A stretch of 32,000 nt of DNA. Origin: Candidatus Methylomirabilis limnetica. Lineage in GTDB: Bacteria; Methylomirabilota; Methylomirabilia; Methylomirabilales; Methylomirabilaceae. The translations under genes and the position numbers were made by a program. Below, one piece after another: positions 5,390 to 24,759 of the stretch. Position 1 is the stretch's first letter, and each line of letters begins with the position of its first letter. The DNA lies in NCBI RefSeq assembly GCF_003044035.1, contig NZ_NVQC01000022.1:1-32000 (forward strand), in the 5' to 3' direction. The notes beneath the pieces were generated by a model that did no database searches, was not told the origin of the DNA, and saw only the letters and a program-made list of their open reading frames with translations.

Positions 5390-5464
<75 letters not shown>

Positions 5465-5624: not shown

Positions 5625-5722
5625 AAGCGGAACTGCCGGGTTGAGTGAGTTCGGTTGACGCCGAGTCCTGTTGCTCATACACTGAACACGTTCGGGTTAT
5701 AGCCGTCAGTCTTCAGCGTGTT

Positions 5723-5757
5723 GCTGAGAGCTGATTGCTGATTGCTGGTTGCTGATT
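5723..5757. repeat. tandem heptamer array, 5 x GCTGANN
   Basis: GCTGAGA GCTGATT GCTGATT GCTGGTT GCTGATT ends 20 nt upstream of the pfp ATG. Confidence 0.75.
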
Positions 5758-5776
5758 TCCCGTCGAGGGGGGCCTC

Positions 5777-7015
5777 ATGAAAACGCTTGGCATACTGGTT
5801 GGAGGTGGCCCCGCGCCAGGCATTAATGGCGTGATCGCTGCTGCGACGATGGAGGCTCGCAACCATGGGGTACGCGTCCTCGGCTTCTACGATGGGTTCA
5901 AATGGCTTGCACGAGGCGACGTAAGCCACGTGATAGAGCTCGAAATCGATGAGGTGTCTCGGATCCATTTCGAAGGGGGTTCTATCCTTCGAACGGCCAG
6001 GGAGAATCCGACCAAATCCCCGGATGCGCTCCGAAATGTGGTCGAGGCGCTGAACAAATTGGAGGTGTCATGCCTGTTGACAATCGGGGGTGATGACACC
6101 GCCTTCGCGGCGTGTCGGCTATCGGAAGCCGTGCAGGGTCGAGTCGCCGTCGCGCATGTGCCGAAGACGATCGACAACGACCTCCCACTCCCGCAGGAGG
6201 TGGCGACGTTTGGCTTTACGACGGCTTGCAACCTGGGCAAAGAGATCGTTCAGAATCTAATGGAGGATGCGGTGACGGCGAATCGCTGGTTCTTCGTCAC
6301 AGTGATGGGCCGACGGGCGGGCCATCTGGCGCTTGGCATAGGAGGCTCTGCCGGCGCCACTTTAACGGTCATCGGAGAGGAGTTTCCAGAACCGAGGATC
6401 CCCCTTCAGACGCTGGTTGACATCCTGGAAGGCGCTATCATCAAGCGGCGCGCCTCCGGGAAGGGGTACGGCCTGGCGATTCTGAGCGAAGGGCTGGCCG
6501 ATAAACTTGATCCTGCTGATTTCGGCTCGGTTGAGCGGGACGGTTATGGGAATGTCCGTCTCTCGGAGCTTGTGTTGGGGCGAGTGCTGAAAGAGCGGGT
6601 TACTGAAAGCCTTCGCGCGCGAGGTGTCGATGTGACGATCGTAGCTAAAGATCTTGGCTATGAGCTCCGCTGCGCTCCACCCGGCGCACTGGATATCCTA
6701 TATTGCCGCGGTCTTGGCTATTGGGCCACCCGTTTTCTGTTGGACGGTCACACGGAGGCCATGGTGACCATCCAGGGGGGGAAGATGGTCCCAATCCCGT
6801 TTCAGCAGATGTTGGATCATCGGACAGGGAAGATCCGTGTCCGGTACGTTGATATCAACTCCGAGTCGTATCGGACGCTCCGGGCCTATATGATCCGCTT
6901 GGAGCCTCAAGACTTTGAGACGCCAGGGCAGATCGAGACGCTCGCGCATGGCGGGCGCCTCGATCAGGCTGAATTCGTAAGCCGGTTTAGTTATCTTGGC
7001 GATCGACGCTCATAG
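5777..7015 (+). CDS. pfp: 6-phosphofructokinase, pyrophosphate-dependent type by signature residues
   Basis: GILVGGGPAPGINGVI, TIGGDDT (Asp where ATP-PFKs have GGDG), VPKTIDNDL (Lys where ATP-PFKs have Gly) and MGRRAGHLAL. Confidence 0.85.
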   Translation: MKTLGILVGGGPAPGINGVIAAATMEARNHGVRVLGFYDGFKWLARGDVSHVIELEIDEVSRIHFEGGSILRTARENPTKSPDALRNVVEALNKLEVSCLLTIGGDDTAFAACRLSEAVQGRVAVAHVPKTIDNDLPLPQEVATFGFTTACNLGKEIVQNLMEDAVTANRWFFVTVMGRRAGHLALGIGGSAGATLTVIGEEFPEPRIPLQTLVDILEGAIIKRRASGKGYGLAILSEGLADKLDPADFGSVERDGYGNVRLSELVLGRVLKERVTESLRARGVDVTIVAKDLGYELRCAPPGALDILYCRGLGYWATRFLLDGHTEAMVTIQGGKMVPIPFQQMLDHRTGKIRVRYVDINSESYRTLRAYMIRLEPQDFETPGQIETLAHGGRLDQAEFVSRFSYLGDRRS

Positions 7016-16972: not shown

Positions 16973-17848
16973 ATGCGCCATCGATGGATCTGTGTCTGGT
17001 TGTCAAGTTTGGTGGCTGTTGTGGCTAGCCTCGGATTGCTAAGTCCTGCCTGGTCTGAAGCGCCAAAAGAGCTGCGGGTTTCGGCTATCCCGGACGAGAA
17101 CCCGACTGAACTGATGCGGATCTATACGCCCTTCGCTGAGTATCTTAGCAAAGAACTGGGCATCCCGGTCAGATACTATCCAGTAGTGGACTACGCTGCC
17201 ACCGTCGAAGCCCTGGCGGCTAAGAAGCTGGACATGGTCTGGTACGGCGGATTTACCTTCGTCCAGGCTCGAAAGCGGACAGGCAATGCGATCCCGCTGG
17301 TGAGCCGGGAAGAGGACCTGCGCTTTCACAGTAAATTCATCACCAGGCCGGAAACCGGCATCAAGACCCTGGCCGACTTAAAGGGCAAGACCTTCTCCTT
17401 CGGAAGCGTCAGCTCGACATCAGGTCACCTCATGCCACGCTATTTCCTTCTGCAGAATGGGATAGACCCCGAAAAAGACTTCGCGAAATTCAGCTTCAGC
17501 GGGGCTCACGATGCCACCGCCCTCTGGGTAGAGAGCGGAAAAGTTGACGCCGGGGCCTTGAATGAGGCAGTGTGGGAAAAGCTCGTTCAGGCCAAAAAGG
17601 TTGACCTCAATAAGGTGCAGGTGTTCTGGACGACACCCCCCTACATCGACTATGTCTGGACCGTGCGGGGCGATCTGGACAGCAGTCTCGTAGAAAAGAT
17701 CGCCACCGCCTTCACGAAGCTCAACTATAGCAACCCAGTGGATAGAGCCCTCATGGACCTTCAGCGTACGAAGGGATACGTCCGCGTCAAGGTCGAGCAG
17801 TTCAAGCCGGCTGAAGATGCAGCGATCGCCGCTGGGCTGCTTCAGTAG
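16973..17848 (+). CDS. phnD: phosphonate/phosphite ABC transporter substrate-binding protein
   Basis: Signal peptide, then PhnD-family motifs: RVSAIPDENPTEL, YAATVEALAAKKLDMVWYGGFTFV and SSTSGHLMPRYFL. Confidence 0.85.
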   Translation: MRHRWICVWLSSLVAVVASLGLLSPAWSEAPKELRVSAIPDENPTELMRIYTPFAEYLSKELGIPVRYYPVVDYAATVEALAAKKLDMVWYGGFTFVQARKRTGNAIPLVSREEDLRFHSKFITRPETGIKTLADLKGKTFSFGSVSSTSGHLMPRYFLLQNGIDPEKDFAKFSFSGAHDATALWVESGKVDAGALNEAVWEKLVQAKKVDLNKVQVFWTTPPYIDYVWTVRGDLDSSLVEKIATAFTKLNYSNPVDRALMDLQRTKGYVRVKVEQFKPAEDAAIAAGLLQ

Positions 17849-17862
17849 CACCATTAGAACCC

Positions 17863-18681
17863 ATGTATATGCTCGATCGAGTCTCTAAGGTATTCGCCGG
17901 CCGGATCGTCGCCGTAGACGATCTTGATCTGAATATCCGACAGGGCGAGCGGGTGGCCTTGATCGGCCCAAGCGGAGCCGGCAAGACGACCCTGTTCCGG
18001 ATGTTGAATCTCACGATCCCCCCAACATCGGGAAGCCTGTTATTCGACGGACTGGACATCGGCCGCTTCTCCGGACGGCGGCTACGAGAGGTCCGACGCC
18101 GAATCGGAACTATCTACCAACAGCACAATCTGATCCCTCGCCTACAGGTCGTTCATAACGTGCTTGCAGGCAAACTGGGAACTTGGTCCACCTGGCAGGC
18201 GGTGCGCTCCCTGATCCGACCGACGGAGGTCGATCTCGCTTCCCTGGCGCTCAGACAGGTCGGCATCGCTGAAAAGCTGTACGACAGGACCGAGACACTT
18301 TCAGGCGGCCAGCAGCAGCGGGTCGCCATTGCCCGCATGCTGGTACAGAATCCAGAGGTGATCCTGGCCGACGAGCCGGTCTCTTCAGTGGATCCCGCGC
18401 TAGCCTCCGGAATCGTCAAGCTGCTGATCGATCTGAGCCGGACCACCCGCAAAACCCTCATCATGAACCTCCACAGTGTTGATCTGGCGCTGGCCCATTT
18501 CCCCAGAGTGATCGGGCTGAAGGATGGAAAGATGTCGTTCGATCTGGCAGCCCCAGCGGTAACAGATGACCATCTGACAGCGCTGTACTCCGGAAGTCAG
18601 ACCGAGACAGCCGAAGAGGAGGCCTCCATCCGTGCAAAGCAACGTTCCCTCTACTCCTGCCAGCCTCACCTTACCAGCTAG
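17863..18681 (+). CDS. phnC: phosphonate ABC transporter ATP-binding protein
   Basis: Walker A GPSGAGKTT, signature LSGGQQQRV, Walker B ILADEP and H-loop NLHSVD. Confidence 0.88.
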   Translation: MYMLDRVSKVFAGRIVAVDDLDLNIRQGERVALIGPSGAGKTTLFRMLNLTIPPTSGSLLFDGLDIGRFSGRRLREVRRRIGTIYQQHNLIPRLQVVHNVLAGKLGTWSTWQAVRSLIRPTEVDLASLALRQVGIAEKLYDRTETLSGGQQQRVAIARMLVQNPEVILADEPVSSVDPALASGIVKLLIDLSRTTRKTLIMNLHSVDLALAHFPRVIGLKDGKMSFDLAAPAVTDDHLTALYSGSQTETAEEEASIRAKQRSLYSCQPHLTS

Positions 18682-19519
18682 GCGCTTCTCCACCTTCCAG
18701 ATCGTCTATTCCGTCCTGTTCGTCCTGACGTTCCTGGGAAGTTATAAGCTTGCCCAGGTGAAACCACTGCTGCTCTTCGAGCCTGAGGGACGCCGGAACA
18801 TCTGGAAGTTCGTCACCGGCATGTTCCCGCCAGACCTATCCTGGAACTTCCTGAGTCTGCTGGGTCGCCCGATCCTGGAAACCATTCAGATCTCTCTGAT
18901 GGGAACCGTCATCGCCGTAGTCATCGGCTTCCCCCTTGGCCTTCTTGCGACAAGCTCGCTCACATTCAAAGGTATTCTGCACGAACGAGAGCTCGCCGGC
19001 TCTCGCCCGCAAGCAATGCTCCACAAGGGATCGTATCTACTGGCCAGGGCGATCCTCAGCCTGTTCCGGACTATCCCTGAATTCGTGTGGGCCTTCATGT
19101 TTGTCCGGGCCGTTGGGCTAGGTCCGTTCCCCGGTGTCCTGGCGATTGCGATCTCCTATGCGGGGATGCTGGGGAAGGTCTACTCGGAGATCCTGGAGCA
19201 TGTGAATCCGGGGCCCTTGGAAGCGCTCCAGGCGACTGGGGCCTCGCGGCTCACCATCCTCCTGTATGGCCTGTTGCCACAGTCCTTACCGAACCTGGTG
19301 TCCTACACCCTGTATCGTTGGGAGTGCGCCATTCGGGCATCGGCGATTTTGGGTTTCGTGGGCGCGGGGGGGATCGGCCAACAGCTTGAGATCTCGATGC
19401 GAATGTTTAATTTCAACCAGGTCACTACCCTGGTCGCGATCCTGTTCGTGATGGTGGCGGGAGTTGATGCCTTGAGCGCCAAGGTGAGAGGCGCGATTTT
19501 TGGCCGGGAGCGCGGTTGA
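18632..19519 (+). CDS. phnE: phosphonate ABC transporter permease
   Basis: Typical PhnE N-terminal F.PDLSW motif, an EAL..TGAS..Q/T loop and multiple TM segments. The start is uncertain, because ATG 18632 overlaps phnC by 50 nt. Confidence 0.8.
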   Translation: MQSNVPSTPASLTLPARRFSTFQIVYSVLFVLTFLGSYKLAQVKPLLLFEPEGRRNIWKFVTGMFPPDLSWNFLSLLGRPILETIQISLMGTVIAVVIGFPLGLLATSSLTFKGILHERELAGSRPQAMLHKGSYLLARAILSLFRTIPEFVWAFMFVRAVGLGPFPGVLAIAISYAGMLGKVYSEILEHVNPGPLEALQATGASRLTILLYGLLPQSLPNLVSYTLYRWECAIRASAILGFVGAGGIGQQLEISMRMFNFNQVTTLVAILFVMVAGVDALSAKVRGAIFGRERG

Positions 19520-20391
19520 TGGTCCATACCCCTACGCGGGCCACGGGTCACGCTGGAGCGAAGAGGCGCGATCTCCTCTCCCCCCCCAATCTGATATTCC
19601 TCGCGGGCTTCCTCATCCTCATGGCCTGGAGCTATGTGGGAACCGAGTTCTCGCTGCGCGGACTGCTGGGCGGGGAGAGTGCATCCCAGATCCTGACCTA
19701 CACCAAGAGACTCTTTCCGCCTGATCTATCCAAAGACTTCTTGCTCAAGACCGGCTACTGGATCCTCGAGACCTTCGCCATGTCGTTTCTCGGGACGATC
19801 CTGGCGGTTCTGATCGCCTTTTCCCTCGTCTTCCTCTCCAGTCGCAACCTGATGTTCGCCGGGCTGCTGTTCGAGATGGAGCGGCACCGTCCGTGGGTTC
19901 GAGCGCTCCGCACCGCCCTATACCTCATCGCCAAGGCTACCCTTAACCTCCTCCGGACCGTCCCCCATCTTGTCTGGGCGCTGATCCTCGTCTTTGCGAT
20001 CGGCCTCGGCCCGTTCCCAGGGATGCTCGCTCTGGGGATTCACACGGGCGGAGTCTTGGGCAGGCTGTTTGGAGAGGTGATGGAGAATGTCGAGACCCAG
20101 CCGATCGAGGCACTGCAGGCGACCGGAGCCGGCCGGTTACAGATCCTGTTCTACGGCATCCTCCCCCAGGTCCTGCCGGAGTGTGTCGCCTATACCCTGT
20201 ATCGCTGGGAGGTGAACATCCGGGAGGCGGTCATCCTCGGCTACGTCGGGGCGGGGGGGCTAGGCCAGCAGATCCAGATCGCCATCAGTCTTTTTCTAGA
20301 GCATCGCCTGCTCACCCTCATCATCGCGATCTATCTCATTGTGACGGCCGTCGACGCCCTCAGCGCCTCCATAAGGAGCCGAATTGCCTAA
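19519..20391 (+). CDS. phnE: phosphonate ABC transporter permease, second copy
   Basis: Paralogous to the preceding gene (FPPDLS, EALQATGAGRLQ, YRWE.NIR, GAGGLGQQ). ATG 19519 overlaps the upstream TGA by 1 nt. Confidence 0.85.
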   Translation: MVHTPTRATGHAGAKRRDLLSPPNLIFLAGFLILMAWSYVGTEFSLRGLLGGESASQILTYTKRLFPPDLSKDFLLKTGYWILETFAMSFLGTILAVLIAFSLVFLSSRNLMFAGLLFEMERHRPWVRALRTALYLIAKATLNLLRTVPHLVWALILVFAIGLGPFPGMLALGIHTGGVLGRLFGEVMENVETQPIEALQATGAGRLQILFYGILPQVLPECVAYTLYRWEVNIREAVILGYVGAGGLGQQIQIAISLFLEHRLLTLIIAIYLIVTAVDALSASIRSRIA

Positions 20392-20471
20392 CAATTCATC
20401 AATGCCCGCGACCGACCATTTCTCTCTCTTTCTCCTTGACAGCGGGATCAAATCACGGTATCACGCGTCAA

Positions 20472-20635
20472 GTGTAGTGTCTCACAAATACCTTTATAAT
20501 CCGTTCGCGGTGAGCAGTTCGACAGGCTCAGGGCAGGCTTGTCGAATCCATGAACGGAACTCATTGAAATGCTTCACCCTTCGACAGGCTCAGGGCGAAC
20601 GGATTGTGTAAAACAGCGCTGGATGCACTACACTA
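20472..20635. repeat. nested inverted-repeat (REP-like) element in the egtD leader
   Basis: Outer inverted repeat is AGTGTAGTG (20472-20480) with CACTACACT (20627-20635). Inner inverted repeat is AATCCGTTCGC with GCGAACGGATT. The direct repeat TTCGACAGGCTCAGGGC occurs twice. The element encodes the junk-peptide motif FTLRQAQGER. Confidence 0.7.
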
Positions 20636-20654
20636 GCAGACTTGAGGTAACATC

Positions 20655-21626
20655 ATGGAAAATGAACGATATACTTGCATTACGCTAAGGAACGCTCTGG
20701 ACACGCTGGCCGACGATATCCGGCAGGCACTCACCGCGCCCAGGAAGTGGCTCCCCTGCAAATACTTCTACGATCCGACAGGGAACGCCCTGTTCGAGCA
20801 AATCTGCGAGTTGCCAGAGTATTACCTGACCAGAACCGAAACTGCCATCTTGAAGCAGCACGCTGTTCACATCATCGGGCGCTGTCCATCGGACCTCACG
20901 CTGGTCGAACTGGGTAGCGGCAGCTCCACGAAGAGCCGATATCTGATCGAGTCATGCCTGGCTCGGCAGCAGGATCTCACCTACTATGCCGTTGACATCT
21001 CGCCAGCCGGATTGGAGAATGGAACCCGACAGCTATTGGACAACTACCCGCGCCTGAGGGTTGTGGGGGTGGCGGCCGAATTTGCCGATGGGCTTGGCTA
21101 CCTTACCACACACGCAAGCGGACCTCGGTTAGTCGCGTTTCTTGGATCCACTATCGGCAACTTCACGGAAGAAGATATCGCCCGGTTTTTCACGATGCTC
21201 CGTCGCCATCTTCGTCCGATGGATCGGCTCCTGCTAGGCGTTGATCTGATCAAAGACCCGGCTGTCCTTGAAGCAGCCTATGACGATGCCCAAGGCGTCA
21301 CCGCGAAGTTCAATCTCAACATTCTCGCCCGGCTCAATCGTGAGTTATCTGCAAACTTCGATCTGGCAACATTTCGGCACCGGGCGGTGTGGAATCACGA
21401 GCGTGGCCGAATAGAGATGAACCTGGTCAGTGTACGCAATCAACGCGTCAGGATCGGCGATCTGAACCTTGACATCGATTTTCGCCAGGATGAAACGATC
21501 CACACAGAAAACTGCTACAAGTACTCCCAGTCGGGAATGGAATCGTTGCTCACGCGCCACGGATTTCAGGTTCTTGGTCACTTTAGCGATCCTCGGGATC
21601 AATTTTGTCTTTTCCTGGCCTCTTGA
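20655..21626 (+). CDS. egtD: L-histidine N-alpha-methyltransferase (hercynine synthase, EgtD family)
   Basis: Similarity to mycobacterial EgtD runs the full length: KYFYDPTGNALFEQICELPEYYLTRTE, LVELGSGSS.K, FLGSTIGNF, LLLGVDLIKD, AYDDAQGVTAKFNLNILARLNRELSANFDL, RIEM and FCLFLA. Confidence 0.88.
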   Translation: MENERYTCITLRNALDTLADDIRQALTAPRKWLPCKYFYDPTGNALFEQICELPEYYLTRTETAILKQHAVHIIGRCPSDLTLVELGSGSSTKSRYLIESCLARQQDLTYYAVDISPAGLENGTRQLLDNYPRLRVVGVAAEFADGLGYLTTHASGPRLVAFLGSTIGNFTEEDIARFFTMLRRHLRPMDRLLLGVDLIKDPAVLEAAYDDAQGVTAKFNLNILARLNRELSANFDLATFRHRAVWNHERGRIEMNLVSVRNQRVRIGDLNLDIDFRQDETIHTENCYKYSQSGMESLLTRHGFQVLGHFSDPRDQFCLFLAS

Positions 21627-21668
21627 TCATCCCGCCACGATGGTTCCGATCTCCTTTTCTCGCCGGCC

Positions 21669-22436
21669 ATGAACGACCTGCCTACGATTGAGTTTGATCA
21701 CGTACACTACCGAGCCCCTAGCGGCGCGGTGGTTCTTGATGATGTCAGCTTCACCGTGAAGCGCGGCGAGGTGCTCGTCCTGGTGGGCCGCAGCGGCGTC
21801 GGTAAGACGACCATCCTGCGGCTGATCAATCGTCTCCTCGTACCGATCGCCGGCGAGGTTCGGGTCGAGGGTCGGGCAACGCCCGAGTGGGACCCGATCG
21901 CCTTGCGTCGCCGAACCGGCTATGTGCTGCAGGAGGTCGGCCTGTTTCCACACATGACCATCGGCCGCAACATCGGGGTCGTGCCGCGCCTGGACGGGTG
22001 GCCGGAACCCCGTATCCATGCGCGCTGCCAGGAGCTGCTGGAGCTTGTCGGGCTTGATCCATCCACCTTTGAAGGACGGTTCCCCCACGAGCTCTCAGGT
22101 GGCCAACGCCAACGAGTGGGGTTCGCGAGGGCGATTGCCGCTGACCCCCCCGTAATCTTGATGGATGAGCCGTTCGGTGCGCTCGATCCGCTCACGCGCG
22201 CCGAACTGCATCGCGAGTTCCACCGCATTCAGGATCAGCTCCGCAAGACCGTCGTCATGGTGTCGCACGACATGGGTGAAGCCTTTGCGCTCGCCACGAA
22301 ACTAGGGGTCCTGGATCAGGGACGCCTCGTGGCGCTTGATACTCCAGAAGTCATCGCCCGCGCCGGCGATCCAAGAATTCGGATGTTCCTCGATGCACTG
22401 CCGCCAGTGCCGGTCATCGCCCGTGACACTGATTAA
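21669..22436 (+). CDS. quaternary-amine (OpuC/OsmV/EgtV-like) ABC transporter ATP-binding protein, no CBS domains
   Basis: Walker A GRSGVGKTT, Q-loop YVLQEVGLFPHMT, signature LSGGQRQRV, Walker B ILMDEP and H-loop VSHD. Confidence 0.85.
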   Translation: MNDLPTIEFDHVHYRAPSGAVVLDDVSFTVKRGEVLVLVGRSGVGKTTILRLINRLLVPIAGEVRVEGRATPEWDPIALRRRTGYVLQEVGLFPHMTIGRNIGVVPRLDGWPEPRIHARCQELLELVGLDPSTFEGRFPHELSGGQRQRVGFARAIAADPPVILMDEPFGALDPLTRAELHREFHRIQDQLRKTVVMVSHDMGEAFALATKLGVLDQGRLVALDTPEVIARAGDPRIRMFLDALPPVPVIARDTD

Positions 22437-23976
22437 CTTCTGGGTCGCCCATCGCGCCGACATGCTCGGCGCAATTGCTCAGCATCTCCTGCTCACGCTG
22501 GTCGCGACCGCCGCAGCAATCGCCATCGCGGTGCCGCTCGGGATCGTGGCGGCACGGCGCCCTCGGCTGGGCGCGGTACTGCTGACCTTCGCCAATATCG
22601 CCCAGACGGTACCCAGCCTCGCCATGTTCGGGTTCCTGGTGGCGGCTCCGCTTATTGGAGGGGTTGGCGCCCGAAGCGCGCTGCTCGTGCTCATCCTCTA
22701 TGCGCTGCTACCGGTCATGCGCAACACCGTTGCCGGTATCCAGGGGATCGATCGGGCCGCACGGGATGCGGGTGTAGCCCTTGGGATGACGCCGAAGCAG
22801 TTGCTGCTACAGGTTGAGCTACCGCTGGCGATGCCGACGATGGTGGCGGGGGTTCGCGTGGCAGCGGTGGGCGGCGTGGGGGCGGCCACGATTGCCGCCG
22901 CCATTGGCGCTGGAGGGCTCGGCGACTATATCTTCCGGGGCCTCTCCATGACCGAGCCGACCCTGATCCTGGCAGGGGCGGTACCGGCTGCGCTCCTCGC
23001 CCTCGCGGTGGACGCGTCGCTCGGATGGCTGGAGCGCGCCATGACACCGGGGGCCACCCGATCGCGGCGCGTGACTGCCCGCGCGCTGGTGGCTACCGGC
23101 ATCGCGCTGACACTGATCGTGATGGGCAGCTTCGCCGTATCAGGGCGCTGGGGCCCTCGGGTCATCATCGGGTCGAAGAATTTTTCAGAACAGATCATCC
23201 TCGGCGAGCTGCTGGCCCAGGTGATCGAGCGGACTACCGATCTCAGGGTAGAGCGCCGTCTCAATCTCGGCGGCACGTTCATCAGCGATCAAGCGCTTCG
23301 CTCCGGCGCCATCGACGCCTACGTTGAGTACACGGGAACGGCCCTGACCGCGATCTTTCATCAGCCTACCTCACGGGATCACGCGGACGTACTCGCGCGC
23401 GTCATCGCAGCGTATGCGGCGACCGACCGTACGGTCCTGCCGTCGCTCGGCTTCAACAACACCTTCGCGATCCTCGTCCGGGCTGCCGAGGCACGCCGAC
23501 TCAACCTCACAACGATCAGCGATGCGGTGGCGCATACGCCTAGCTGGAAGGCCGCCTTCGGGTACGAATTCCTGGAGCGCGAGGATGGCTACAAGGGACT
23601 GGTCCAGACCTACGGGCTACGATTCGCCGAGACGCCGCATGTGATGGATCTGACGCTGAGCTATCGAGCGCTCGCGGGAGGCTCTGTCGATCTGATCGCG
23701 GGCGATGCAACGAATGGACTGATCAAGGGGCTCGATCTGACCATGCTCGAGGATGACCGACGGTACTTCCCACCATACGACGCCATCCCCGTTGTGCGGA
23801 CCCAGACGCTGGCAGCCCATCCGGCGCTTCGGACGGCGATCGAGCGATTAGCAGGACGGATCTCGGCGGAGGCGATGCGACAGATGAACTACGATGTAGA
23901 TGTCAGCCACCGCGATGCCGCAGTCGTCGCGCGGGAGTTCCTTGACCAGCTTGGGTTACAGTCGCCGGCCCGGTAA
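22423..23976 (+). CDS. fused ABC permease + OpuAC/OpuCC-type substrate-binding domain (EgtU/OpuBC-like)
   Basis: The N-terminal half has about 6 TM segments and an EAA-like loop (AARDAGVALGMTPKQ). After a further TM segment comes a periplasmic domain with IIGSKNFSEQIILGEL, YVEYTGTAL, FLEREDGY and LEDD.RYFPPYDA. The start is uncertain (GTG 22423 or ATG 22393). Confidence 0.82.
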   Translation: MTLINFWVAHRADMLGAIAQHLLLTLVATAAAIAIAVPLGIVAARRPRLGAVLLTFANIAQTVPSLAMFGFLVAAPLIGGVGARSALLVLILYALLPVMRNTVAGIQGIDRAARDAGVALGMTPKQLLLQVELPLAMPTMVAGVRVAAVGGVGAATIAAAIGAGGLGDYIFRGLSMTEPTLILAGAVPAALLALAVDASLGWLERAMTPGATRSRRVTARALVATGIALTLIVMGSFAVSGRWGPRVIIGSKNFSEQIILGELLAQVIERTTDLRVERRLNLGGTFISDQALRSGAIDAYVEYTGTALTAIFHQPTSRDHADVLARVIAAYAATDRTVLPSLGFNNTFAILVRAAEARRLNLTTISDAVAHTPSWKAAFGYEFLEREDGYKGLVQTYGLRFAETPHVMDLTLSYRALAGGSVDLIAGDATNGLIKGLDLTMLEDDRRYFPPYDAIPVVRTQTLAAHPALRTAIERLAGRISAEAMRQMNYDVDVSHRDAAVVAREFLDQLGLQSPAR

Positions 23977-24064
23977 GGACCAGTGTAGTGCGTCTAACAC
24001 TTCTTTACATTTACCGTGCGCCCTGAGCATGTTGAAGGGCTCACCAAATATATTGCCGTGTGTC

Positions 24065-24499
24065 TTATGGCGCGATGAGACGGTCTGCGCCCTCAGGCCA
24101 CACGCGTTTGAAGTCGTCAACATTGAATGTTAACACGTGATCAACCCTGGATTTCTTCGCTGCCATGACGATAATGGCATCATAAATCACGCCTCCGGAT
24201 AGTCCCAGATCAACCATCCGCTTGACGACAGAGCTGTACTCCGAAGGTGAAAGGGAAACCATCTTTGCCAGGGTTTCAACATCACTGTGGATCAGATGTC
24301 CGGCTATCCATGGCGTAATCCGTGGGCTTATGGGCAACGTGGCCAACCCCGCATAAAGCTCAGCCAGCGTATGACCGGCAACCAGCATATCGAACTCTTT
24401 CGCCCTTGCCCGTTTGAGCCATCGGAAAGCAGGGGCATGCAGGGGGTGCGGTCCTACAATCGCGGCCACAAGGACAGAGGTATCAAAAAGGATTTTCAT
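24065..24499 (-). CDS. vapC: PIN-domain toxin
   Basis: MKILFDTSVLVAA (first acidic residue), then later D/E positions typical of PIN domains. The start forms an ATGA overlap with the upstream antitoxin stop. Confidence 0.85.
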   Translation of the reverse strand: MKILFDTSVLVAAIVGPHPLHAPAFRWLKRARAKEFDMLVAGHTLAELYAGLATLPISPRITPWIAGHLIHSDVETLAKMVSLSPSEYSSVVKRMVDLGLSGGVIYDAIIVMAAKKSRVDHVLTFNVDDFKRVWPEGADRLIAP

Positions 24500-24759
24500 G
24501 ATCTCCGCGGCGAAGACACCCTCCTGATGCGTTCCTCGCGATGAGCCCTCACAGCCTCCATCAGATTGCCTGTTGCTGTGCCTGCATAGACCAGCAGGCC
24601 ATCCTTCACCTTGATTGGGATTTCTTCGCGCAACGGCTTCAAAATCACCTCGTCATCCGATTGCTCGACCTTTAACAGTTCTCCTGGTTTTAGACCGAGA
24701 ATATCGCGGATTTCTTTTGGGATCACCACCCGACCGAATCTATCCAACGTTGTCTCCAT
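24496..24759 (-). CDS. vapB: AbrB/SpoVT-family antitoxin
   Basis: LDRFGRVVIPKEIRDILGLKPGELLKVE is a swapped-hairpin AbrB motif. GGAGGAG Shine-Dalgarno is present. Confidence 0.85.
   Translation of the reverse strand: METTLDRFGRVVIPKEIRDILGLKPGELLKVEQSDDEVILKPLREEIPIKVKDGLLVYAGTATGNLMEAVRAHREERIRRVSSPRRS

Follow-up and report, generated by a model that had tools for sequence, protein, structure and literature searches.

A hercynine synthase gene and its adjoining betaine-type ABC importer in Candidatus Methylomirabilis limnetica: a possible module for the synthesis and salvage of histidine betaines

Background

The hercynine synthase gene egtD in a 32,000-nucleotide stretch of Candidatus Methylomirabilis limnetica (NC10; contig NZ_NVQC01000022.1, positions 1 to 32,000; hereafter the window) is followed, head to tail and on the same strand, by genes for an ABC ATPase without CBS domains and for a permease fused to an OpuAC-type substrate-binding domain (SBD). 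With confidence that is evenly balanced, it is proposed that these genes constitute a module by which hercynine, or a 2-thio/seleno derivative of it, is both made and salvaged, and the core of a Methylomirabilota cluster comprising a putative selenate ABC importer, senA, egtD, the ABC importer and a metE-like gene.

The antioxidants ergothioneine and selenoneine have been studied widely. EgtU is the sole known bacterial uptake system for ergothioneine/selenoneine, and we know of no transporter of hercynine or selenoneine. In soil and sediment phyla, the importer that accompanies egtD and senA/egtB is a testable candidate for a histidine-betaine transporter, and a pocket in which a cage Tyr gives way to Asp/Glu would broaden the rules of betaine recognition. 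The Methylomirabilis cluster, without senA and with the rest retained, would offer a natural experiment on the purpose of hercynine without the oxygen-dependent step.

Gene organisation and the product of EgtD

The features are listed in Table 1. An earlier reading made from the DNA letters (the sequence-only reading) had called egtD, the ATPase gene and the fusion gene correctly, all three ORFs being confirmed, and its description of the architecture as EgtUV-like (CBS-less ATPase and TMD-SBD fusion) also holds. The gap between egtD and the ATPase gene is 42 nt (21627-21668) and not 43 nt as given there. The ATPase is matched by the TIGR01186 ProV profile at positions 7-219 of 363 only and therefore has no CBS tail; it is 80-91% identical to the ATPases at the same position in relatives. 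The third ORF spans 22336-23976, where Pfam assigns residues 65-237 to BPD_transp_1 and 275-538 to OpuAC, and the real start of the fusion gene is likely either ATG 22393, selected by the gene caller, or ATG 22462, whose Met is conserved in relatives.

Table 1. Features of the window and the evidence for their assignment
Feature	Position	Strand	Evidence and remarks
tRNA	5390-5461		Rfam
PhnD-like importer SBP, putative selenate-binding by family	16973-17848	+	PF12974; TIGR04553 (putative selenate ABC transporter SBP), 334.9 bits, cutoff 250
Putative selenate/oxyanion importer ATPase	17863-18681	+	TIGR02315, 255.5 bits, just under cutoff 266.1
Two PhnE-type permeases, putative selenate/oxyanion importer	18632-19519, 19516-20391	+	TIGR01097 (PhnE), 251.8 and 245.4, cutoff 216.7
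Synteny break at the senA position of relatives	20369-20709		blastn; 341 nt including the 263-nt intergenic region 20392-20654
Two REP-like 17-mers	20518-20534, 20580-20596		within the 263-nt intergenic region
egtD, L-histidine N-alpha-methyltransferase (hercynine synthase)	20655-21626	+	323 aa; TIGR03438, PF10017
ABC ATPase, betaine/proline/choline (ProV) type without CBS	21669-22436	+	255 aa; PF00005 only
Permease (BPD_transp_1) fused to an OpuAC-type binding domain, with an extra anchor helix	22393-23976	+	Pfam, gene call, hydropathy
REP-like 17-mer, degenerate inverted copy	24020-24036	-	2 mismatches; just past the transporter gene, at the metE-like position of relatives

The terminator scan detected no candidate site in the two gaps separating the three genes; its sole two matches lie within coding sequence at or below the shuffled-control level, and the promoter/terminator scan gave nothing above shuffled expectation. 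We infer co-transcription of egtD with the two ABC genes. Near this unit, the Rfam scan gave neither a riboswitch nor another RNA; its sole match in the window was the tRNA.

EgtD matches PF10017 (E=2.9e-110, Pfam scan) and scores above the cutoff of the NCBIfam equivalog TIGR03438 over its full length (361.9 bits against 290.9); with the EasF subfamily model it falls below the cutoff (201.4 against 205.55). Comparison with M. smegmatis EgtD (4pim; E=6.8e-67) revealed identity at Y39, F47, Y56, G161, N166, Y206, T213, M252 and E282 (M. smegmatis/M. tuberculosis numbering). The role of M252 comes from structure work on the M. smegmatis enzyme. The motif TENCYKY, which the sequence-only reading had set against mycobacterial TEVSCKF, is confirmed by alignment, with E282 retained and S284 replaced by Cys, a conservative, clade-wide substitution common to 119 of the 120 closest homologues. 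Roles of Y39, F47, Y56, N166, Y206, T213, E282 and S284 have been described (PMC8593015). Since the histidine contacts are all conserved and S284C is conservative and clade-wide, the suggestion that this EgtD may methylate another amino acid is unsupported and an altered substrate was rejected. Based on the equivalog score and the kept contacts, EgtD of the window is predicted to be a histidine-to-hercynine methyltransferase.

Conservation of the linkage and absence of senA

The pairing of egtD with an importer had been regarded in the sequence-only reading as unusual; it is instead the rule in this EgtD clade. The ABC pair lies directly downstream of egtD in all eight close EgtD relatives with enough flank, and an OpuAC-type pair occupies this place in 7 of 39 distant EgtD loci (~18%). 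Comparison of gene neighbourhoods, which that reading had recommended, revealed that the linkage recurs in relatives (their loci or contigs are given L-numbers): the egtD-ATPase-fusion triad is found with unrelated flanks at L006, L010, L016 and L097, and the order senA-like, egtD, ABC at L012, L013, L017-L019 and L105-L110, where the metE-like gene comes next wherever the contig is long enough. Three separate SBD subtypes adjoin egtD, one of them a reversed SBD-TMD fusion, and the egtD-linked OpuAC importer subtypes are spread over the Methylomirabilota, Acidobacteriota and Planctomycetota. The linkage occurs in EgtB-type as well as SenA/SenB-type clusters, and the sen clusters of L111 and L113 consist of senB and, divergently, senA-egtD-ABC (TIGR04348 and NF041186 above cutoffs). 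The adjacency far exceeds what chance would give, as the triad recurs with unrelated flanks; chance adjacency was rejected on this recurrence, and the functional coupling surmised in the sequence-only reading is real because the linkage recurs widely.

Variations were also observed. At L008, egtD is kept and the pump is lost. No egt gene lies within 8 kb of the transporter in about 65 of 75 acidobacterial relatives; a search near the 75 acidobacterial transporter loci found no catabolic or hut genes, the neighbours being housekeeping genes (peptidase M16, aconitase, LpxB, DNA ligase). The acidobacterial transporter loci near egtBD may reflect few independent events.

The selenium context was overlooked in the sequence-only reading: the window corresponds to the cluster of its relatives minus senA. 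The same putative selenate SBP gene lies upstream of senA-egtD in L106 and L110, the L105 contig beginning inside the ATPase gene with the SBP gene outside its coverage. Window positions 17042-20368 are colinear with L106 1974-5409 at 79-82% DNA identity. The possibility that the upstream ABC is a lineage-specific accident was rejected, the four genes being present upstream of senA-egtD in L105, L106 and L110 (tblastn, blastn); at L006, L010 and L097 other genes lie upstream of egtD. The conserved order of the cluster from DNA synteny with relatives is putative selenate ABC, senA, egtD, betaine-type ABC and metE-like.

The DNA of L105, L106 and L110 is syntenic with the window on both flanks of the break, where 341 nt of the window stand for 1644 nt in L106 (5410-7053; senA at 5653-6990; blastn), and tblastn found no senA/egtB remnant. 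Downstream, the syntenic stretch shared with L106 extends to window 23956 (L106 10413). The metE-like ORF follows in L106 (10415-11557), beginning 4 nt before the permease-SBD stop and overlapping it, and is missing from this position in the window; by its score, the product belongs to the B12-independent methionine-synthase family.

No EgtB/SenA, SenB, rhodanese-type EanB or MES-like protein was found in the 32-kb window by Pfam scans and tblastn, which bears out the earlier remark that egtB and eanB are missing locally. Pfam scans of window ORFs of at least 150 aa revealed no selenophosphate-synthetase-type protein (senC), and selD/senC was seen in none of the loci fetched. SenA/SenB homologue look-ups for Methylomirabilis genomes returned further sen/egt clusters from other organisms, none of the hits being assignable to the genome of the window.

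The enzyme encoded upstream of egtD in relatives exceeds the SenA cutoff (507-528 against 420), lies under the EgtB cutoff (322-345 against 360), matches NCBIfam NF041186 and carries the composite motif N-E-H/H-R/H-x-H/Y-Y/N-F-Y/R; by these sequence features it classifies as selenoneine synthase SenA and not EgtB. In an NJ tree without support values, the loci lacking senA group in a single clade that lies within the senA-bearing ones. In four senA-less lineages all three genes show dN/dS of 0.09-0.22 (dS up to 0.36-1.0), and egtD and the pump genes are under purifying selection.

Substrate recognition

Pocket positions are given in SpEgtU numbering. The alignment places K242, N243, F244, E246, G274, T275, Y293, T296, F337, N339, F341, E375, R379, L401, D419 and Y443 in the pocket of the window SBD. 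The carboxylate clamp (K242, T296, R379) is kept throughout the clade, the window included, and the cage residues Y293, N339 and Y443 are retained across the clade. In the window the cage positions are occupied by Y293, F341, D419 and Y443; since the canonical Tyr419 is Asp/Glu in the entire clade, the pocket is not the textbook four-aromatic cage. The other two egtD-linked SBD subtypes retain an aromatic residue at 419.

The SpEgtU cluster has been characterised by an invariant G244, the F293/Y337 'F-Y switch', I/L243, P401 and Y419, and EgtU by high-affinity ergothioneine binding with about 10^4-fold discrimination against hercynine. This signature is present in 4 of 4 EgtU-type sequences in the same alignment (Sp, Lm and two Lactobacillales plasmid genes) and missing from the window, which has N243, F244, Y293, F337, L401 and D419. 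Because the signature residues are missing, the pump is not an EgtU orthologue (G244->F, F293->Y, Y337->F, Y419->D/E), and the likeness to EgtUV drawn in the earlier note does not extend to the ergothioneine-specific signature. Its gene calls, architecture, local absences and coupling stand, while EgtU specificity, rarity and an altered EgtD substrate do not. The SBD is ~34-36% identical to the Sp and Lm EgtU domains. The top-scoring solved structures (E 1e-38 to 1e-52) are engineered sensors derived from a betaine-type binding protein, the choline, carnitine and glycine-betaine binders OpuCC/OpuBC of B. subtilis, and AfProX, which score ahead of the EgtU domains with none clearly preferred over EgtU. 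In its F244 and Y293/F337 arrangement, the predicted pocket resembles the generalist OpuBC/OpuCC/AfProX binders more closely than EgtU.

Proposed function and alternative explanations

The egtD/ABC unit would be the surviving core of the conserved Methylomirabilota cluster. EgtD would convert histidine and SAM to hercynine, and the ABC system would serve as a binding-protein-dependent importer whose OpuAC domain, tethered on the outside, binds a quaternary amine with a carboxylate group. The ligand would belong to the histidine-betaine family (hercynine or its 2-thio/2-seleno derivatives) and transport would probably be inward, the cell both producing and salvaging a costly histidine-betaine molecule. 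As senA and the metE-like gene are missing from the cluster here, egtD and the pump would feed a chalcogen-inserting enzyme encoded elsewhere, or hercynine would be the end product. The purifying selection on egtD and the pump suggests that they still work together.

It is considered rather unlikely that the pump merely takes up common compatible solutes (glycine betaine, choline, carnitine or proline betaine), co-regulated with egtD by a shared stress and with no histidine betaine involved. The best solved matches are consistent with such an importer, as are the F244 and Y293/F337 arrangement of the glycine-betaine binder AfProX and the acidobacterial relatives, most of which lack an egt neighbour. 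It accounts poorly, however, for the egtD linkage of three SBD subtypes in both EgtB-type and SenA/SenB-type clusters, for its presence in 8 of 8 loci of the close clade and for the clade-wide Asp/Glu in place of the cage Tyr419. CBS domains of OpuA/OpuC ATPases mediate osmotic gating, and their absence from the window ATPase argues against a classical osmoregulated pump.

Import of a precursor or methyl donor appears improbable. Here the pump would bring in histidine, or a methylated onium compound that regenerates methionine/SAM by way of the metE-like protein. EgtD spends three SAM per hercynine, the metE-like gene of L106 overlaps the transporter gene and scores within the B12-independent methionine-synthase family, and the Asp/Glu in the cage could favour a less methylated, hydrogen-bond-donating amine. 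Yet three aromatic cage positions and N339, typical for quaternary amines, are retained, position 419 is aromatic in the other two egtD-linked SBD subtypes, and the pump is under purifying selection in the window lineage without a metE-like gene; moreover, we know of no PF01717 enzyme that is a betaine-homocysteine methyltransferase. Finally, the absence of senA and the metE-like gene, the REP-like repeats on either side of the unit and the pump loss in the sister lineage L008 might suggest chance or a decaying leftover in which egtD and the pump have had no joint function since the loss of senA, but three intact ORFs, the low dN/dS of four senA-less lineages at dS up to 0.36-1.0 and the movement of the triad as a unit into different genomic contexts make this highly improbable.

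Beyond the synthesis and salvage of histidine betaines by this unit, a broader reading is put forward tentatively, as possible but less likely than not: that OpuAC-type ABC importers embedded with egtD/senA/egtB represent an undescribed histidine-betaine transporter class (for hercynine and/or selenoneine/ergothioneine) of at least three subtypes, distinct from EgtU, and that Methylomirabilis keeps egtD, the pump and the putative selenate importer without a clustered SenA. Candidatus Methylomirabilis is a nitrite-dependent methane oxidiser and SenA is O2-dependent. If true, this would imply a hercynine-based physiology, or a SenA-independent route to seleno/thio-histidine, in Candidatus Methylomirabilis.

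Comparison with known systems

A literature search on egtD- or sen-linked ABC importers, or on ergothioneine in Methylomirabilis, found nothing relevant. EgtUV (S. pneumoniae SPD_1642-1643, L. monocytogenes BilEB, H. pylori) shares with the window a small ATPase and a permease-OpuAC (cluster F-III) fusion, and EgtU also has the K242/R379/T296 clamp, the cage base N339, Y443, E375 and T275. In addition to the substitutions given above, the window differs from EgtU by I/L243->N, Y341->F and P401->L; comparison with HpEgtU, confined to the published positions (P296, G327, I451), showed a match solely at 274 (Gly). The EgtU pumps on record come from non-producing Firmicutes and H. pylori, whereas the window pump sits inside a biosynthetic cluster of the Methylomirabilota.

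B. subtilis OpuCC/OpuBC form an aromatic cage around the quaternary amine, and the OpuA/OpuC ATPases end in C-terminal tandem CBS domains that constitute an osmosensing module. The F244-type pocket and the Y293/F337 arrangement are common to the window, OpuC/OpuB of B. subtilis, the iNicSnFR/iAChSnFR sensor proteins and AfProX. Unlike OpuC/OpuB/AfProX, the window encodes permease and SBD as a single polypeptide, and its ATPase lacks a CBS tail; one Tyr of the cage, which in AfProX-family glycine-betaine binders consists of four Tyr, is Asp/Glu and another Phe. The context is egtD/senA, as against osmoprotection genes for OpuC/OpuB-type systems.

A subset of sen clusters is reported to adjoin a putative selenate transporter (bioRxiv 10.1101/2022.04.13.486033), and the window resembles this subset in having the TIGR04553 SBP gene, PhnC and two PhnE genes directly upstream of egtD. 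It differs from the published cluster in the absence of senA, senB and senC from the window, and the published three-gene sen cluster includes neither the metE-like gene nor the betaine-type ABC importer. With the mycobacterial egtABCDE and the two-gene egtBD clusters the window shares the EgtD equivalog family and its substrate contacts; it differs from them in having no egtA, egtB, egtC or egtE, and the partner enzyme of its relatives is of the SenA type.

Organisation of the egtD locus

Three open reading frames running in one direction occupy positions 20655-23976 of the window and an identical copy is present on a 242-kb ENA metagenome contig. By the names that its nearest EgtD homologues bear, the window falls within Candidatus Methylomirabilis / NC10. 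The ATPase gene is the direct neighbour of egtD, as the sequence-only reading had it, although the spacing is 42 nt and not the 43 nt given there. Its product lacks the CBS tail, an osmosensing module, since the match to the ProV profile stops at position 219 of 363. Two starts are available for the fusion gene: an ATG at 22393, selected by the gene caller, which gives a 44-nt overlap with the ATPase gene, and an ATG at 22462, which lies 25 nt past the ATPase stop and encodes a Met invariant across the aligned relatives. The fusion protein carries an extra hydrophobic helix between its permease and OpuAC parts. Neither intergenic gap of the triad yielded a site in a terminator scan, whose only two matches lie within coding sequence and do not rise above shuffled controls; the three genes would be co-transcribed. 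EgtB/SenA, SenB, rhodanese-type EanB and MES-like proteins were not found within the 32-kb window, in agreement with the earlier remark that egtB and eanB are missing locally.

Features of the window and their coordinates
Feature	Position	Strand	Remarks
tRNA gene	5390-5461	+	sole Rfam match in the window
PhnD-like binding protein, ATPase, two PhnE permeases	16973-20391	+	upstream of egtD
TTCGACAGGCTCAGGGC, first copy	20518-20534	+	17-mer
TTCGACAGGCTCAGGGC, second copy	20580-20596	+	17-mer
egtD	20655-21626	+	323 aa; PF10017 E=2.9e-110; TIGR03438 361.9 bits vs cutoff 290.9 (NCBIfam equivalog)
ABC ATPase, ProV type	21669-22436	+	255 aa
BPD_transp_1 permease + OpuAC binding domain fusion	22393 or 22462 to 23976	+	domain matches; gene caller; conserved Met
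TTCGACAGGCTCAGGGC, inverted copy	24020-24036	-	2 mismatches
PIN-domain toxin	24065-24499	-	directly after transporter gene
MazE/AbrB-type antitoxin	24496-24759	-	pair with PIN toxin

Linkage of egtD with ABC importers

Locus contexts were obtained from exact-protein look-ups of EgtD homologues. The egtD-ATPase-fusion triad recurs with unrelated flanks in the relatives' loci L097, L006 and L010 (EgtD identities 90%, 83% and 78%, respectively) and egtD stands alone in L008; in the more distant L012 and L013 the triad has an EgtB-like gene immediately upstream and a metE-like gene immediately downstream, and in L014 (Gemmataceae) egtD is accompanied by an EgtB-like gene and by an ABC pair that runs divergently. 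A scan with the transporter alignment, one genome per species, gave 546 relatives, the best 80 of which were inspected and comprise 5 Methylomirabilota and about 75 Acidobacteriota. In three of the five Methylomirabilota loci (L017-L019) egtD and the ABC pair are accompanied by an EgtB-like gene, L016 starts at egtD and L015 holds the ABC genes only; about 10 acidobacterial loci among these best 80 of 546 carry egtD and an EgtB-like gene at most 8 kb from the transporter, several of them immediately adjacent, tail to tail.

In a metagenome scan with the EgtD alignment, an ABC ATPase lies directly downstream of egtD in 8/8 close relatives (at least 60% identity) with enough flank, an EgtB-like gene directly upstream in 8/9 close relatives and an OpuAC-type ABC pair directly downstream in 7/39 distant loci (below 60%), these counts being of loci and not of independent evolutionary events. 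Three subtypes of the OpuAC-type binding domain (SBD) were found with egtD, including one with a reversed fusion to the permease part (SBD-TMD; L099-L103, L111, L151, L155, L168, L173 and L178) and a Gemmataceae-type fusion (L014, L113). The physical linkage between egtD and an ABC system of betaine type that works with a binding protein is thus real, conserved and widespread; it goes beyond chance and is not the unusual combination it had been called. Without a common function, it is difficult to see why different OpuAC pumps should have been recruited independently beside egtD.

The SenA-type partner enzyme in the relatives

The EgtB-like proteins beside egtD-ABC in the clade all pass the SenA equivalog NF041186 (507-528 bits vs cutoff 420) and miss the EgtB cutoff (322-345 vs 360). 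The composite motif of the L019 enzyme, read from PDB alignments as N-E-H / H-R / H-M-H / Y-Y / N-F-Y / R, corresponds to the SenA pattern xNEH--HRHxHYYN(F/Y)(F/Y)R (Kayrouz et al. 2024) and to neither EgtB-I nor EgtB-II, and the EgtB pair Arg87/Asp416 is replaced in the relatives' enzyme by His/Tyr, as reported for all SenA proteins (Kayrouz et al. 2022, bioRxiv 10.1101/2022.04.13.486033). A homologue of 64% identity belongs to a senA-senB-egtD cluster whose SenB is bona fide (TIGR04348, 409.8 bits vs cutoff 300), and in L111 and L113, close relatives of the window EgtD, a divergent senB adjoins senA-egtD-ABC. Judged by sequence, the partner enzyme is of the SenA type, and the relatives' clusters have a selenium context; selD or senC was seen in none of the fetched loci of relatives.

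Beside senB, L111 (3630-4673, -) and L113 (3691-4605, -) also encode an EamA/DMT-family transporter with a weak match to O-acetylserine/cysteine exporter models, which together with the ABC importer hints at paired export and re-import in these sen clusters. A few kb from senA-egtD-ABC, L012 (1936-3362) and L013 (3614-4966) encode a DUF3641-bearing radical SAM protein together with a CMD-family protein, a pair that resembles arsenosugar-synthesis genes. Proteins of about 1130 aa, with a molybdopterin-oxidoreductase-like N-terminal part and a NifS/IscS-type cysteine desulfurase, are encoded directly upstream of the EgtD homologue in L122 (3083-6475) and also in L125, L127, L149 and L172; their architecture matches that of the metallopterin-dependent ergothioneine synthase (MES).

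Absence of senA from the window

The PhnD-like protein encoded upstream of egtD matches TIGR04553, 'putative selenate ABC transporter substrate-binding protein' (334.9 bits vs cutoff 250), and the PhnD/ATPase/PhnE genes also precede senA-egtD-ABC in the metagenome relatives L105, L106 and L110, the L105 contig starting inside the ATPase gene and that of L110 ending inside the permease gene. Positions 17042-20368 of the window correspond to L106 1974-5409 (79-82% DNA identity) and 20710-23956 to L106 7054-10413 (73-78%); 341 nt in the window stand for 1644 nt in L106 that include senA (L106 5653-6990), which is absent at the syntenic position in the window. Downstream of the transporter gene L106 goes on with a metE-like gene, and the metE-like position of L105-L107 is occupied in the window by the PIN/MazE pair, which is also found downstream in L010.

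The replacing segment holds two copies of TTCGACAGGCTCAGGGC, which sits within a 25-nt imperfect inverted repeat; with the inverted copy just past the transporter gene, they bracket the egtD-ABC unit. TTCGACAGGCTCAGGGC has the look of a REP-like element that is dispersed, exact copies of it being present at unrelated places in L010 and L018. Each of four short Logan contigs (L002-L005) starts 78 nt upstream of egtD, which may reflect a break in assembly at the repeats.

The neighbour-joining EgtD tree, drawn without support values, groups the senA-less loci (window, L097, L010, L006, L016, L008) as a single clade within the senA-bearing ones, which points to one loss of senA. The dN/dS values of egtD, the ATPase and the fusion gene among the senA-less lineages are 0.09-0.22 (dS 0.36-1.0), indicating that the three genes stayed functional after this loss; the triad is under purifying selection without senA.

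Substrate residues of EgtD

Alignment of the window EgtD with that of M. smegmatis (4pim; chain index = native + 2) showed Y39, F47, Y56, G161, N166, Y206, T213, E282 and M252, which we take to be a histidine-binding position, to be identical. The single difference among the positions compared, Cys for S284, is shared by 119 of the 120 closest EgtD homologues and is therefore a clade trait and no local oddity. Roles in binding the carboxylate, amino group and imidazole of histidine have been described for Y39, F47, Y56, N166, Y206, T213, E282 and S284 (PMC8593015). Since the other contact residues are identical and S284C is clade-wide, the suggestion that this homologue methylates a different amino acid was rejected, and the window EgtD is to all appearances an ordinary hercynine synthase.

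Binding pocket of the importer

With an EgtU-like gene of a Ligilactobacillus plasmid as the query, sequences of S. pneumoniae EgtUC and of L. monocytogenes BilEB were recovered from PDB alignments, and the recovered SpEgtU numbering matched every residue that the papers name. In a joint alignment, positions 242, 243, 244, 246 / 274, 275 / 293, 296 / 337, 339, 341 / 375, 379 / 401 / 419 / 443 read K-(I/L)-G-E / (T/K)-T / F..(T/S) / Y-N-Y / E..R / P / Y / Y in four EgtU-type sequences and K-N-F-E / G-T / Y..T / F-N-F / E..R / L / D(E) / Y in the window pump and virtually all of its clade; the distant H. pylori EgtU was compared at three paper-given positions only. Like EgtU, the window pump keeps the carboxylate clamp K242, T296 and R379 and most cage residues; unlike EgtU, it lacks the ergothioneine-diagnostic invariant G244 and the F293/Y337 switch, differs at the thione-sulfur contacts 243 and 401, and has an acid (D/E) for the cage tyrosine 419. 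On the ORF counted from 22336, the SBD covers about residues 272-546, F283 standing at position 244 and D457 at 419. It shares F244 and Y293/F337 with AfProX, a glycine-betaine binder for which the EgtU paper gives this arrangement.

The acid at 419 is no universal mark of the linkage, since the other two egtD-linked subtypes are aromatic there. The SBD-TMD subtype also lacks G244, F293 and Y337, its best solved-structure match being SpEgtUC (178 bits); it has a conserved His where SpEgtU has P401. Among solved structures the window SBD scores highest with the engineered iNicSnFR/iAChSnFR sensor binding proteins and OpuCC/OpuBC, and somewhat lower with EgtU domains. An assignment to EgtU is rejected by the pocket residues: the pump is not an EgtU, its pocket being apparently built for a carboxylate-bearing onium compound without ergothioneine-specific features.

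Probable function

The ABC system would act as an importer, like all known ABC systems of this kind that depend on an SBP. Its ligand would be a histidine betaine, because hercynine and its 2-chalcogen derivatives are the only metabolites common to EgtB-type, SenA-type and senA-less clusters, because pump and EgtD are kept together without SenA and because the ATPase is devoid of the osmosensing module. Hercynine, ergothioneine and selenoneine are all candidates; hercynine may be mildly favoured, since Phe244 fills the room that EgtU uses for a water network around the thione (EgtU paper).

A plain osmoprotectant importer, which the AfProX-like residues and the OpuCC/OpuBC scores would suit and the CBS-less ATPase would not, is a rather unlikely alternative. 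Import of a precursor or methyl donor, tied to the metE-like enzyme, is less probable again; the metE-like gene follows the transporter in relatives and its place in the window is taken by the toxin-antitoxin pair. A decaying leftover is a most improbable description of a triad under purifying selection.

Comparison with known systems

No account of OpuAC ABC importers linked to egtD or to sen genes turned up in the literature searched, and none of ergothioneine or selenoneine in Methylomirabilis. Some sen clusters have been reported near a putative selenate transporter and egtD (Kayrouz et al. 2022, bioRxiv 10.1101/2022.04.13.486033); that description includes neither the metE-like gene of the relatives' cluster nor an ABC importer of betaine type. 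The parts of the unit belong to known families, on which their recurring combination, the distinctive pocket and the senA-less cluster are new variations.
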